From Dehalococcoidia bacterium (GTDB taxonomy: Bacteria; Chloroflexota; Dehalococcoidia; DSTF01; JACRBR01), in contig DASQHL010000156.1 in the NCBI GenBank assembly GCA_035632115.1, positions 694 to 64,693 of the forward strand: DNA of 64,000 nucleotides, written 5' to 3'. Numbering within the stretch: the first letter of the stretch is position 1; each line of letters starts with the position of its first letter. Shown here piece after piece: positions 52,882 to 56,355 of this stretch. The position numbers were made by a program, and so were the translations under genes. The notes under the pieces were generated by a model. It was given only the letters and a program-made list of their open reading frames with translations. It did not search any database and was not told the DNA's origin.

Positions 52882-54129
52882 TCAGCCGAAGGGTGTGGCG
52901 AGCGAGAGGACGAGCAGGATGAGGGAGAGCGTGATGACGACGCCGGCGGTCAGGAACCCGATCGCATTGAAGAGCGGCGTGTTGACGCGGGCGCCCATCA
53001 GCTCACGGTCGTTGGTGAGGCGGAGGAGGCTGAACAGCACGACGGGCAGCGCGACAGCATCGAGCACCTGGATGAGGAGGAGCGTCGTGGTGAATGGGAT
53101 TCCCGGCAGCAGGGCGAGAGCCATGGAGATGGCGATCATGCCGGTGAACAGACCCATGAAGACGGGCGCACGCCGGAAGTCCTGAGAGATGCCCTTCTCG
53201 ACGCCGAGGGCCTCAGTGACGCTGTACGCGCTGGTAAGGGCGAGGACGGGGGCGGCGAGGAGGCAGGCGCCGAGCAATCCGACGGCGAAGAGCGTGCGGG
53301 CAAGGGAGCCGGCGACGGGCTCGAGCGCGCGGGCGGCATCGGAAGCACTTTGCACCTCCACGCCCCTGGCAAAGAGCGTGGCGGCGGTGGCTACCATGAT
53401 CGCGAGCGCGACGAAGTTGCTGAAGAGCGAGCCGGCAACGACATCGATCTGTTCGTAGACGTAGTCTTCGGGACGGACCGCCTTCTCGGCGACGGAGGAC
53501 TGGAGGAAGAGCTGCATGTAGGGCGTGATGGTCGTGCCGATGAGGGCCACGATGAGGGTGACGCCGGCGGTTGAGCGGGGCACGGAGGGCACGACGAGGC
53601 CGCGTCCGATGCCGCCCCAGTCCGGGTGGGCGAGGACGGCGGCAACGGGGTACGCGATGAAGACGAGCGCCATGAGGAGAAACGCGCGTTCGACGAGCTT
53701 GTAGGAGCCGAACACGACGAGGACCCAGAGCACGACGGCGGCGGCAGGCACCGCGACGAAGCGAGGCACGTGGAGGAGTTCGGCGGCGGCGCCGATCCCG
53801 ACGAACTCCGAGAAGGTGGTGCCGAGATTGGCGACAAGGAGTGCGATGACGATGAACGCGGTGACGCGGACGCCGAAGTGTTCGCGTACCAGGTCTGTGA
53901 AGCCCATGCCGGTGGCAGAGCCGAGGCGGGCGCACATCTCCTGGACGACGATGAGGGCCACAGTGATGACGATGAGGACCCAGAGGAGCTGGTAGCCGTA
54001 GCGGGCGCCGGCAGCGGAGTACGTTGCGATGCCGCCGGCGTCGTTGCCCGCGTTGGCAGCGATCAGACCAGGGCCAAGGATGCCCGCAAGGAGGAACGCA
54101 CGTGGGAAGCGGCGCGCGAGGGTGCGTGA
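52882..54129 (-). CDS. Nramp-related transporter lacking canonical DPGN/MPH metal-site motifs (NRMT-like, candidate Mg2+ transporter); start codon unresolved
   Basis: The track ORF begins at a GTG inside TM1. Extending the frame upstream gives ...LLAGILGPGLIAANAGNDAGGIATYSAAGARYGYQLLWVL.... This is an Nramp TM1 with NAGND in place of DPGN. TM6 has TITPYMQ in place of MPHN. There is no in-frame ATG, GTG or TTG between the upstream stop (54205-54207) and this motif. Confidence 0.65.
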   Translation of the reverse strand, partial: SRTLARRFPRAFLLAGILGPGLIAANAGNDAGGIATYSAAGARYGYQLLWVLIVITVALIVVQEMCARLGSATGMGFTDLVREHFGVRVTAFIVIALLVANLGTTFSEFVGIGAAAELLHVPRFVAVPAAAVVLWVLVVFGSYKLVERAFLLMALVFIAYPVAAVLAHPDWGGIGRGLVVPSVPRSTAGVTLIVALIGTTITPYMQLFLQSSVAEKAVRPEDYVYEQIDVVAGSLFSNFVALAIMVATAATLFARGVEVQSASDAARALEPVAGSLARTLFAVGLLGACLLAAPVLALTSAYSVTEALGVEKGISQDFRRAPVFMGLFTGMIAISMALALLPGIPFTTTLLLIQVLDAVALPVVLFSLLRLTNDRELMGARVNTPLFNAIGFLTAGVVITLSLILLVLSLATPFG

Positions 54130-54215
54130 CCTCGTCCCCGGAGGACGCGGGTCAACACGATCCGACCCTTGCGGCGCCTGTACGTCCGGAATGACAATCG
54201 CCCATCACTTCAGTG

Positions 54216-55490
54216 TCAGCCGCCAAACCCCCGGCTGCGACCCCGTCTCCACGATCCCTTGAGCACCACGTCCAGTACGTCATCGACGGTGATGGCGCCC
54301 AGGAATCGGCGCTCTTCATCGACGACGGGGATGGCAAGGAGATTATATTCGGCGATCTTCTCAGCGACACGCTGGGGCTCCTCATCCGACGTAACGGTCT
54401 CCAGCTCTCGCGTCATGACATCACGCACGAGCGCGCCGGGGGCGGCGATAAGGACCTGGCGCATGCTGAGGACGCCGACGAGCTGACTCTGCTCGTCGAG
54501 GACGAAGAAGTAGTAGGCGAAGTCGGGCGCATCCTCACGCGTCTGGTAGACGCGGAGGGCCTCGCTCACCGGGCGGCCGGGGGCAATCGTGAGGACATTG
54601 GTGGTCATGACGCCGCCAGCCGTATCGGGCGCGTACTCGAGGAGGCGGCGCACGGCCTGCGACTCGGGCTCCTCCATCTCGTGAAGCAGCTCTTCGGCGC
54701 GGGGAGCGGGGACTTTCGCGAGTACGTCGGCGGCCTCGTCGGGTTCCATCTCCTCAATGAGGTCGGCGGCCTGTTCAACGGGCATGGCACTCAAGAGCTG
54801 GGCCTGCTGCTCGGTCGAAAGCTCCTCCAAGGTGTCCGCAGCGTGCTCCTCGTCGAGGGAGGACAGGACTTCGGCGCCCTCCTGTTTACTCAGTTCCGAG
54901 ACGATCCGCGCGAGCTGCTGCGGGCGGAGCTTGCGGAGTTGGAGGTGGCCGACCTTTAGCCGCACGGCGGGGGTGTCGGTGGTCAGGTACTCGACCTCGC
55001 GCCAGTCGGTGAGCATGCGCCCGGGGAAACGGCCACGCATGCCGCCGGGGACGAGGCGGCGGAGGATGGCGCGGCCGCCGGTATCGAGTGCGACGACGCG
55101 GTAGCCGTCATAGCTGCGGGACAGGTAGAGGTCGTTGACCCGCACGACGCGCGTGCCCCGCACGTCGATCACCTGGCGATCGAGCACGTCACTGACGAGC
55201 ATGAGCTCGCCGTCGCGGCGATGGAAGCGTCCGACGTCGACGGCGGCCGTGTTGAGTCGGACGGCGCCGGGGCGAATCTCGGCGATGTGGTCGATGGGGA
55301 CGAAGAAATCGCGGCCACCGGCCCGGCTGACCAGGCCCGTGACGAGCGGGTAGCCTCCCTCCCGCACCCGGGCGACCACGTCCTTGACCCGTGCGATCCG
55401 CTCGCCCTGCCGTTCGACAACGGGGGAGGCGACGATCTCCGAGAGGGCGATCAGGTCCGCATCGATCGCGGTTGCCGGAACGTGTGCCAC
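54216..55490 (-). CDS. MgtE-like cytoplasmic regulatory module only (N-domain + CBS pair), no transmembrane domain
   Basis: 424 aa. Has an acidic MgtE_N helical region (EELSTEQQAQLLSAMPVEQAADLIEEMEPDEAADVLAKVP) and two CBS motifs. It ends (...ITVDDVLDVVLKGSW...) where the MgtE pore domain would begin. Its stop lies 8 nt upstream of the Nramp-like reading frame. Confidence 0.75.
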   Translation of the reverse strand: MAHVPATAIDADLIALSEIVASPVVERQGERIARVKDVVARVREGGYPLVTGLVSRAGGRDFFVPIDHIAEIRPGAVRLNTAAVDVGRFHRRDGELMLVSDVLDRQVIDVRGTRVVRVNDLYLSRSYDGYRVVALDTGGRAILRRLVPGGMRGRFPGRMLTDWREVEYLTTDTPAVRLKVGHLQLRKLRPQQLARIVSELSKQEGAEVLSSLDEEHAADTLEELSTEQQAQLLSAMPVEQAADLIEEMEPDEAADVLAKVPAPRAEELLHEMEEPESQAVRRLLEYAPDTAGGVMTTNVLTIAPGRPVSEALRVYQTREDAPDFAYYFFVLDEQSQLVGVLSMRQVLIAAPGALVRDVMTRELETVTSDEEPQRVAEKIAEYNLLAIPVVDEERRFLGAITVDDVLDVVLKGSWRRGRSRGFGG

Positions 55491-55569
55491 TGTGCTCCCT
55501 CCGTGCGGAGCGTAAACCCGCCGGACTCACGCGGCAACCCCACGACAAGGTTGGAAAGGGTGCGGAGGG

Positions 55570-56355
55570 CTAAGGAGACGCCAGGAAGCCGGCGATCCGA
55601 GCCGAGAGCGCGGCAGCGTGCGGGCCGGCAAAGAGGTCGGTGCCGTGCGCATTACCGTCGTAGAGCTGCTCCTGTGCATCGCTGCCGGCAGCCGTGATGA
55701 GGCGCTCGAGGCCGCGGCGGGCGGGGACATCGCCGGTGCTGGCGATGAACAAGCGGGGCGCGGCGATGCGTGGCACCGCGGCGGCGGCGTCCAACCCTTC
55801 GAACTGATCCAGCGCGGAGATGGCGACCACTCCCGCAACAGACACGCGAGCCGCAACGATGAGCATAGCTGTTGCGCCGACGCTTGCACCGACGAGGAAG
55901 ACGCGCGATCGGTGCAGCGTGTCGCGCATGTAGGCGTAAGCAGCGGCGACGTCAGTCTCCGCGCTCTCGAAGTCCTTCTCGCCCGTCGAAGCACCGTAGC
56001 CGCGGAAATCGAAGGTCATCACGGTGTACTGGCCCGAGGCGGCAAGCTGGAGGGCCATGGGATACCACGCGACCTGGTCGACGGGGCGCATGTGGACGAG
56101 GATGACGCCAGCGGGGCCGGAGCCGAAGACACGGGCGTCGAGTGCTATCGGCGTCAAGGCGGCCGCCTCGCCCGACTCCGGCGTTTCGCTGGCGACCGCG
56201 ACGATGCGGACGTCCCGTGAGAGTGCTTCGGCCGTGCCGACGACGGGGGTCGGGGGGCGATCGGGGGCCTCCTCTGCGCACGCGCCGAGGAACAGCGCGA
56301 CGACGAGCGCCGCGATCGGACACAGAGACGCACCGGCGCGACCAACGGCCGTCAT
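55570..56355 (-). CDS. Alpha/beta hydrolase lipoprotein
   Basis: Lipobox LFLGAC|AEE and a GASVGA nucleophile elbow. Confidence 0.6.
   Translation of the reverse strand: MTAVGRAGASLCPIAALVVALFLGACAEEAPDRPPTPVVGTAEALSRDVRIVAVASETPESGEAAALTPIALDARVFGSGPAGVILVHMRPVDQVAWYPMALQLAASGQYTVMTFDFRGYGASTGEKDFESAETDVAAAYAYMRDTLHRSRVFLVGASVGATAMLIVAARVSVAGVVAISALDQFEGLDAAAAVPRIAAPRLFIASTGDVPARRGLERLITAAGSDAQEQLYDGNAHGTDLFAGPHAAALSARIAGFLASP

Follow-up and report, generated by a model that had tools for sequence, protein, structure and literature searches.

The subject of this study is a pair of genes on the minus strand between positions 52882 and 55490 of a 64,000-nucleotide (nt) stretch of Dehalococcoidia DNA (contig DASQHL010000156.1), the whole of which is referred to here as the window. 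Analysis of the two reading frames confirmed that both genes are real: gene A encodes a soluble protein related to the cytoplasmic part of MgtE, and downstream of it lies a gene for a transporter of the NRMT branch of the Nramp family (Table 1). The locus is an operon of two genes and belongs to the known mgtE-like/nrmT type, first described in 2014, and the pairing itself adds nothing new. A second feature is undescribed in the literature searched: in this Chloroflexota clade, the transporter gene has a conserved, frameshifted 5′ end that overlaps a short open reading frame (sORF).

TABLE 1 Features of the gene pair and their positions in the window
Feature	Position	Strand	Basis
Shine-Dalgarno (SD) sequence of gene A, GGAGGGAG, 4 nt ahead of the GTG	55495..55502	-	Read from sequence
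Gene A, soluble MgtE-like protein, 424 amino acids (aa), GTG start, TGA stop (54218..54216)	54216..55490	-	Open reading frame (ORF), Pfam, Foldseek
PRC-barrel region of gene A, residues 13-170, two beta domains	54981..55454	-	PF05239 and AlphaFold2 (AF2) model
MgtE N-domain of gene A, residues 188-289	54624..54929	-	PF03448, E = 2.8e-24
CBS pair of gene A, residues 295-410	54261..54608	-	PF00571, two stretches
Conserved basic C-terminal tail of gene A, LKGSWRRGRSRGFGG, residues 411-424	54219..54260	-	Homolog alignment
sORF, GTG-ATG (54208/54205), 17 codons, MGDCHSGRTGAARVGSC, TGA 54154..54152	54152..54208	-	-1 frame relative to transporter
NRMT-type Nramp reading frame, open from 54204, stop codon 52882..52884	52882..54204	-	PF01566, EleNRMT alignment
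ATT, fifth codon of the open transporter frame, NCBI start of HYM16540.1 (436 aa)	54190..54192	-	ATT, ATC or ATA (ATH) in 25/25 loci
Transmembrane helix 1 (TM1) metal-site motif D55-A-G-G58 (DxxG)	54031..54042	-	Column-for-column with EleNRMT D55/G58
TM6 metal-site motif T224-T-I-T227 (TxxT), followed by P-Y229 and L234	53524..53535	-	Alignment to EleNRMT T224/A227/W229/N234

Gene A encodes the MgtE sensor without its pore

The product of gene A is identical to NCBI entry HYM16541.1, annotated as "CBS domain-containing protein" and derived from a Dehalococcoidia metagenome-assembled genome. Pfam matched a PRC barrel (PF05239) at residues 13 to 77, the MgtE N-domain (PF03448, MgtE_N) at residues 188 to 289 with an E value of 2.8e-24, and the CBS pair with an E value of 1.1e-20; past the CBS pair there was no Pfam match, and the five-helix pore domain of MgtE was not found. 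The AF2 model (mean predicted local distance difference test score, 78.7) is laid out as a beta-rich stretch over the first 170 residues, a helical domain, the CBS pair, and a terminal helix (residues 402 to 417) that leads into a disordered end. It is all-beta over residues 13 to 79 and 95 to 136 and places a second N-terminal beta domain at approximately residues 95 to 170. Within the PRC region, the motif RRDGE..L..DVLD.Q..D..G.R..RVND is invariant across phyla.

Comparison with MgtE bore out the initial annotation, which had read this ORF as an MgtE N-domain plus CBS protein that stops where the pore would begin. The mgtE model TIGR00400 matched only profile positions 27 to 252 of 450, with a score of 154.7 against a cut-off of 232.75. 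The N-domain and CBS pair align with those of Thermus thermophilus MgtE (PDB 2YVX/2YVY); with the cytosolic domain 2yvy, the alignment covers residues 185 to 409 (E = 4e-35) and runs to VDDVLDVV, and the gene A product then ends 15 residues later. The top Foldseek matches were likewise MgtE cytoplasmic domains (E = 2e-19, on the order of 1e-19). Unlike T. thermophilus MgtE, the gene A product lacks the transmembrane domain, the acidic plug helix (sites Mg2 and Mg3) and the pore site Mg1, adds two PRC barrels at its N terminus, and is a separate polypeptide encoded beside a transporter of unrelated fold.

The ligands of the MgtE cation sites have been assigned as D91/D247 (Mg4), D226/D250 (Mg5), D95 (Mg6), E59 (Mg7), E258 (Mg2) and D259 (Mg3) (Maruyama et al. 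2018, PMC5882242). Acidic residues occupy the positions of five of the six cytosolic ligands in the gene A product (E59, D91, D95, D247 and D250, with D404 and D407 aligned to the last two), such that the ligands of Mg4, Mg6 and Mg7 and half of those of Mg5 are kept. At the C terminus, W414 and R415 were invariant and F422 nearly so in 14 homologs from several phyla. Because this tail sits where MgtE connects its sensor to its pore, it is the best candidate for a contact with the transporter. Across phyla, the tail of the MgtE-like protein reads ..SWRRxxxRxF.., with invariant W and R, and may be a docking peptide.

The downstream protein belongs with the NRMT transporters

The Nramp domain PF01566 is matched over profile positions 1 to 356 of 357 (E = 1.2e-91) in a frame that lies directly downstream of gene A and ends at the stop at 52882, in agreement with the initial annotation. 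That annotation had also pointed to an Nramp-related Mg2+ transporter, a placement that the best solved match supports. EleNRMT of Eggerthella lenta (PDB 7QIA) aligned with an E value of 9.8e-105 (about 1e-104) over residues 35 to 434, with an ungapped core and identical residue numbering, compared to 4.9e-35 for the best MntH structure. The NRMT signature has been defined as DxxG in TM1 and TxxA/T in TM6 (Ramanadane et al. 2022, PMC8806188). In the transporter, D55-A-G-G58 stands in place of DPGN and T224-T-I-T227-P-Y229 in place of AxxMPH. Both metal-site motifs are therefore replaced, as initially noted, while the register given at that time (NAGND for DPGN) was two residues off.

D55, G58, T224, E133 and Q379 are common to EleNRMT and the transporter. 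The proteins differ at position 227, which is T rather than A and thus inside the published TxxA/T, and at positions 229 and 234, which are Y and L rather than W and N. Y229 and L234 occupy the alpha-6b histidine positions of proton-coupled Nramps. Models for canonical MntH were not satisfied (NF001923, 167.3 against a cut-off of 430; TIGR01197, 82.5 against 272.5), and neither these scores nor the DAGG and TTITPY motifs fit a canonical Nramp/MntH Mn2+/Fe2+:H+ symporter. We conclude that the transporter, judged from its sequence, belongs to the NRMT clade of SLC11/Nramp. It is expected to carry out uncoupled transport of Mg2+ and Mn2+, since it shares the EleNRMT residues and carries side chains that cannot be protonated at the alpha-6b histidine positions. 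The work on EleNRMT dealt with that transporter by itself, and the corresponding paper (PMC8806188) contains no discussion of a partner protein.

The gene pair is widespread and does not represent a split fusion

Shin et al. (2014, PMC4072509) reported that most members of the NrmT branch adjoin a gene homologous to the MgtE cytoplasmic domain, coined the name "mgtE-nramp operons," and raised feedback regulation or a chaperone activity as possible functions. The locus in the window resembles their operons from Clostridium acetobutylicum (Ca_c0685 region) and Acidobacterium capsulatum (Acp2976/Acp2977), in which the soluble MgtE-like gene is located directly upstream on the same strand. The initial annotation had suggested a chimeric system, made of an MgtE-type sensor and a non-MgtE pore. 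This was a reasonable proposal but not a new one, having already been put forward in that study, and the cytoplasmic feedback hypothesis published there is the same as the one put forward below. The partner was called a "small protein" in 2014, whereas here and in relatives it has about 410 to 430 aa and two PRC barrels. The frameshifted, start-less 5′ end of the transporter gene and the overlapping sORF are not described in PMC4072509, and no later work on the MgtE-like partner of NRMT was found in the literature searched.

Among the 80 genomic NRMT loci surveyed, 63 carried a same-strand homolog of gene A upstream of the transporter gene, and the phyla with the pair include Chloroflexota, Acidobacteriota, Desulfuromonadales, Firmicutes, Nitrospirota and others. 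The top 120 homologs of gene A consist of PRC, MgtE_N and CBS domains (269 to 463 aa, mostly 410 to 428). No Nramp domain occurs in any of these 120 proteins, and the top 120 homologs of the transporter carry PF01566 only, so that fusion proteins are absent from both sets.

For the junction between the two genes, a set of 25 loci from the Dehalococcoidia/Chloroflexota clade was assembled, which are 70 to 80% identical and share the synteny argG, gene A, NRMT gene, CoA-transferase (the window together with L001 to L011, L081 to L085 and L161 to L168). The genes are 6 to 10 nt apart in most of these loci, with a 1-nt overlap at the closest. The initial annotation had offered a single fused polypeptide split by a frameshift as an alternative to two genes. 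This cannot be brought about by a single indel, as the TGA of gene A (54218..54216) lies upstream of the TGA that closes the transporter frame (54207..54205) and no single indel can join both. In addition, the frame of gene A relative to the transporter varies between relatives, being 2 in most loci, 0 in L002, L084, L165 and L007, and 1 in L010. More distant relatives, moreover, carry spacers of 75 to 136 nt in which the transporter has a GGAG SD and an ATG or GTG of its own. The split-fusion reading thus fails on frame geometry, on variable frames, on the lack of fusion homologs and on these separate starts.

Two observations concern ORFs near the pair. The MgtE-like and NRMT genes of Acidobacteriaceae are separated by a 349-aa ORF whose stop overlaps the NRMT ATG (for example, L036, 3012..4061, from Terriglobus roseus DSM 18391); similar gaps of approximately 1 kb are found in many Acidobacteriaceae loci. 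In the window, a 261-aa alpha/beta-hydrolase ORF (55570..56355, minus strand) separates argG from gene A. In L165, argG immediately precedes gene A, and the hydrolase ORF may be a local insertion.

A conserved sORF overlaps the 5′ end of the transporter gene

A GTG-ATG is found 7 to 10 nt past the gene A stop. The transporter had initially been assigned a start at this site, eight nt after gene A, which does not hold, as the GTG-ATG sits in another frame, one base behind that of the transporter. The transporter frame is closed upstream by the TGA at 54207..54205, and in the window it contains no ATG, GTG or TTG until 53961, already past TM1 and the metal-binding Asp. At NCBI, HYM16540.1 is given with the N terminus MPDVQAP. 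The sequence of the junction was identical in an independent Logan assembly, which speaks against an assembly error.

The same arrangement recurs throughout the clade. No canonical in-frame start precedes TM1 in 16 of the 25 loci, while the out-of-frame ATG is kept in all of them. The sORF is 16 to 22 codons long and always ends in TGA (25/25), whereas gene A ends in TGA, TAA or TAG. The A of its ATG is invariant even though it falls at a third position of the transporter frame or outside it. The T of its TGA is conserved in 20 of 23 unique sequences, and in the other three a TGA follows four codons later; this T occupies a synonymous position of the transporter frame (GCT, GTT, ACT, CGT, GGT) despite a genomic GC content at third codon positions (GC3) of 0.88. 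Downstream of the ATG, an ATH codon is present in 25/25 loci and is never ATG. The script counted 24 of them (ATT 14, ATC 7, ATA 3), and the ATA of L166 was read by eye from the sequence. This is the only start-like codon in the transporter frame that all 25 loci have in common. Isoleucine is encoded in this genome by ATC 79 times, ATT 4 times and ATA 0 times, making ATT atypical. Over TM1, the ratio of nonsynonymous to synonymous differences per site (pN/pS) was 0.13 in the transporter frame, indicating that TM1 is translated.

Upstream of the overlap, the SD of gene A (GGAGGGAG) is strong, and the out-of-frame ATG has none. As a side observation, both overlapping frames of the junction (54150..54204) contain codons seldom used in this genome (ATT, GTA, CAA and GTT in one frame, CAT and AGG in the other), while neighboring genes have GC3 values of 0.84 to 0.92. 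Rare codons in both overlapping frames point to selection at the nucleotide level, e.g., for an unstructured initiation region. A conserved structure that could stimulate frameshifting was not found at the junction: RNAalifold returned only a 4-bp AUGG/UCAU stem with a weak alifold energy, and the fold of the window sequence had a z-score of +1.05. A hairpin around the sORF stop of the window was dismissed because it had no covariation support, with column 54 being mostly G opposite G.

Several other routes into the transporter frame were considered and rejected. Read-through of the TGA at 54207, beginning at an upstream [AG]TG in overlap with the 3′ end of gene A, does not apply in L002, L007, L010, L084 and L165, where the upstream frame is not the transporter frame. 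Selenocysteine at the same TGA is contradicted by relatives that lack it and have T or R, not Cys, at this position. A start at the NTG that follows an SD-like AAGGG would open a third frame that ends inside TM1 and is soon interrupted by stops in L009 and L010, and a -1 shift from that third frame lacks a -1 slippery heptamer.

The junction has left its mark on database annotation. Gene callers have cut entries of the clade transporter to 359 to 365 aa, which removes TM1 and the metal-binding Asp; truncated or inconsistent relatives include P0026 to P0074, P0001, P0018, P0021 and P0245. The starts chosen at NCBI are also inconsistent, with ATT used here, CTG in L165, and an ATC inside TM1 in L002.

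Outgroups point to an old frameshift behind the ancestral start

Transporters of the outgroup (approximately 57% identity) begin with M/V-A-[DE]-P-x-R-[IT]-P, encoded in a single frame as ATG GCC GAT CCG ACC CGG ATC CCG GGC behind a GGAG SD. The clade has ATG GGC GAT followed by ATH CCG GAC, with an offset from ATG to ATH of 10, 13, 16 or 19 nt (always 1 modulo 3), compared to 18 nt in outgroups. From this match between clade and outgroup DNA, the ancestral start codon and first codons are still present in the clade. On these alignments, an old net frameshift lies between codon 3 and the ancestral Ile-7 codon and has persisted through the radiation of the clade.

Discussion

Overall, the explanation that we favor, with a probability of about 0.6, is that the locus is an mgtE-like/nrmT operon in which the sensor docks on the transporter to provide feedback, and in which the transporter is initiated weakly at the ATT underneath a decoy sORF. 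NRMTs form a branch of the Nramp family whose transport of Mg2+ and Mn2+ follows the cation gradient and is not coupled to protons. The gene A product, composed of two PRC barrels and a complete MgtE cytoplasmic sensor with a basic tail in place of the plug helix and pore, would dock on the cytoplasmic face of NRMT and lower uptake once the cytosol contains enough divalent cation and possibly ATP. Through docking, a uniporter with no gate of its own would gain the kind of feedback built into MgtE. A gating role of the gene A product is plausible. At the junction, the ancestral ATG would, after the old frameshift, open a decoy sORF that captures ribosomes leaving the well-translated gene A, and the transporter would start at the weak ATT 13 nt downstream of this ATG, thereby keeping the sensor in excess over the pore. 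Such weak ATT initiation is the likeliest mechanism and is preferred over a +1 shift. Under either start model, synthesis of the transporter probably falls far below that of the sensor, and a low yield would make sense if an ungated uniporter is harmful.

Several points weigh against this explanation. With respect to the sensor, the position of MgtE D226 is N in the gene A product, and the plug-helix ligands E258/D259 are absent, with the basic tail SWRRGRSRGFGG instead. With respect to transport, the only published test was negative or uninformative, in that co-expression of the A. capsulatum pair left the rescue of a Mg2+ transport defect unchanged (PMC4072509), and the A. capsulatum NRMT acted mainly as a Mn2+ transporter/importer in the same study. 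The window also differs from the operons of Shin et al. in having no M-box riboswitch; neither this nor any other Rfam element matched at E values up to 1 between 52500 and 56500, and the context hence does not indicate specificity for Mg2+. With respect to the start, no SD lies within 5 to 10 nt of the ATT at 54192, whereas gene A and the downstream CoA-transferase have clear SDs, and the ATG 13 nt upstream should outcompete the ATT. Evolutionary patterns are alike for ATT initiation and an early +1 shift, as the same constraints are predicted by both. In the overlap, pN/pS was 0.60 to 0.66 versus 0.68 to 0.84 for two of the frames, about an equal fit, and exceeded 1.3 in the third; calling the translated frame by pN/pS or per-column variability was ambiguous and was dropped.

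Two well-known bacterial genes frame the choice between start models. The infC gene, encoding initiation factor 3, has a conserved non-AUG start (AUH, never AUG) that makes initiation deliberately weak. In prfB, encoding release factor 2 (RF2), a conserved short zero-frame ORF ends in UGA, and the main ORF continues in the +1 frame. The NRMT gene resembles infC in having a conserved AUU, AUC or AUA, and never AUG, at the start position, and differs from it in that the AUU lacks an SD and is preceded, at a distance of 13 nt, by a strong AUG. It resembles prfB in having a short zero-frame ORF with a conserved stop and its main ORF in the +1 frame (25/25 loci), and differs from it in lacking both a CUU-U slippery codon and an SD-like element at a 3-nt spacing.

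In the prfB-like account, the conserved ATG would be the true start of the transporter; initiation would produce M-G-D, and a fraction of ribosomes would shift by +1 at one of two places, the stretch from codon 3 to the Ile codon or the TGA of the sORF. Unshifted ribosomes would end at the TGA, and the yield of full-length NRMT would be low and possibly sensitive to Mg2+ or RF2. We consider this account unlikely, while acknowledging that it would explain much of the conservation at the junction. None of the 25 loci has lost the ATG, which in each case is set exactly one base back from the transporter frame; L084 and L165 extend it with further in-frame ATGs that overlap or abut the gene A stop. 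ATG GGC GAT and ATH CCG GAC both match the single-frame outgroup M-A-D-P-T-R-I-P-D, as would be the case were the two halves still joined in a single polypeptide. TGA closes the sORF in every one of the 25 loci while gene A uses all three stop codons, and the T of this TGA persists at a synonymous position of the transporter frame against a GC3 of 0.88. However, there is no slippery P-site codon able to re-pair in +1, and the last sORF codon varies (TGT, TGC, CAC, CCG, CGG, GGC, GAC); the SD-like AAGGG is 8 nt rather than 3 nt ahead of that codon; no conserved RNA structure was detected (see above); and bacteria very rarely use programmed +1 shifts. Moreover, several lineages have gained ordinary in-frame starts (TTG at -42, ATG at -34 or -48), which makes the M-G-D part dispensable. 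The fuller version of this account, in which a conserved programmed +1 frameshift makes the clade NRMT and the sORF with its invariant UGA forms a recoding cassette that sets the ratio of transporter to sensor, is if anything the less probable of the two. If true, such a cassette may tune this ratio, e.g., by Mg2+ or RF2 availability.

Another view leaves the start aside and holds that the MgtE-like protein does not gate the transporter at all and is instead a metal chaperone or buffer, a regulator of another target, or a nucleotide sensor that is co-transcribed for cation homeostasis. The single published assay, in which co-expression made no change and chaperone activity was offered (PMC4072509), is in line with this, as is the 349-aa gene that separates the two genes in Acidobacteriaceae. 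CBS pairs commonly bind adenine nucleotides, and the MgtE CBS domain binds ATP (PMC5529423). We nevertheless regard a role unrelated to gating as improbable, given that strict same-strand gene order is kept across distant phyla, that the closely spaced genes of the clade (6 to 10 nt apart in most loci, 1-nt overlap at the closest) point to translational coupling, that gene A retains MgtE ligand residues whose mutation blocks channel closure, and that the invariant WR...F tail is found exactly where MgtE links sensor to pore. Finally, the lack of a canonical start and the proteins of 359 to 365 aa that callers report in dozens of relatives might suggest a decaying pseudogene or an assembly error. 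With a junction identical in an independent assembly, the same arrangement in 25 independent loci, a frame intact over 440 codons, a TM1 pN/pS of 0.13 and all metal-site residues kept, this is extremely improbable.

Returning to the favored explanation of a docked sensor and a weakly initiated transporter, the pair recalls the question raised in 2014 of what role a widespread MgtE-like soluble protein plays for NRMT transporters. Handles for approaching this role are a PRC-PRC-MgtE_N-CBS partner of approximately 420 aa, which keeps most MgtE Mg2+ ligands, and its WR...F tail. The frameshifted 5′ end is a modest but real curiosity. On the practical side, the start anomaly entails systematic mis-annotation, with TM1 lost or starts inconsistent, in dozens of clade entries. 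On the biological side, it represents a long-kept 5′ frameshift with a conserved overlapping sORF in a cation-transport operon, which implies that this clade may rely on deliberately weak non-AUG initiation or on recoding.

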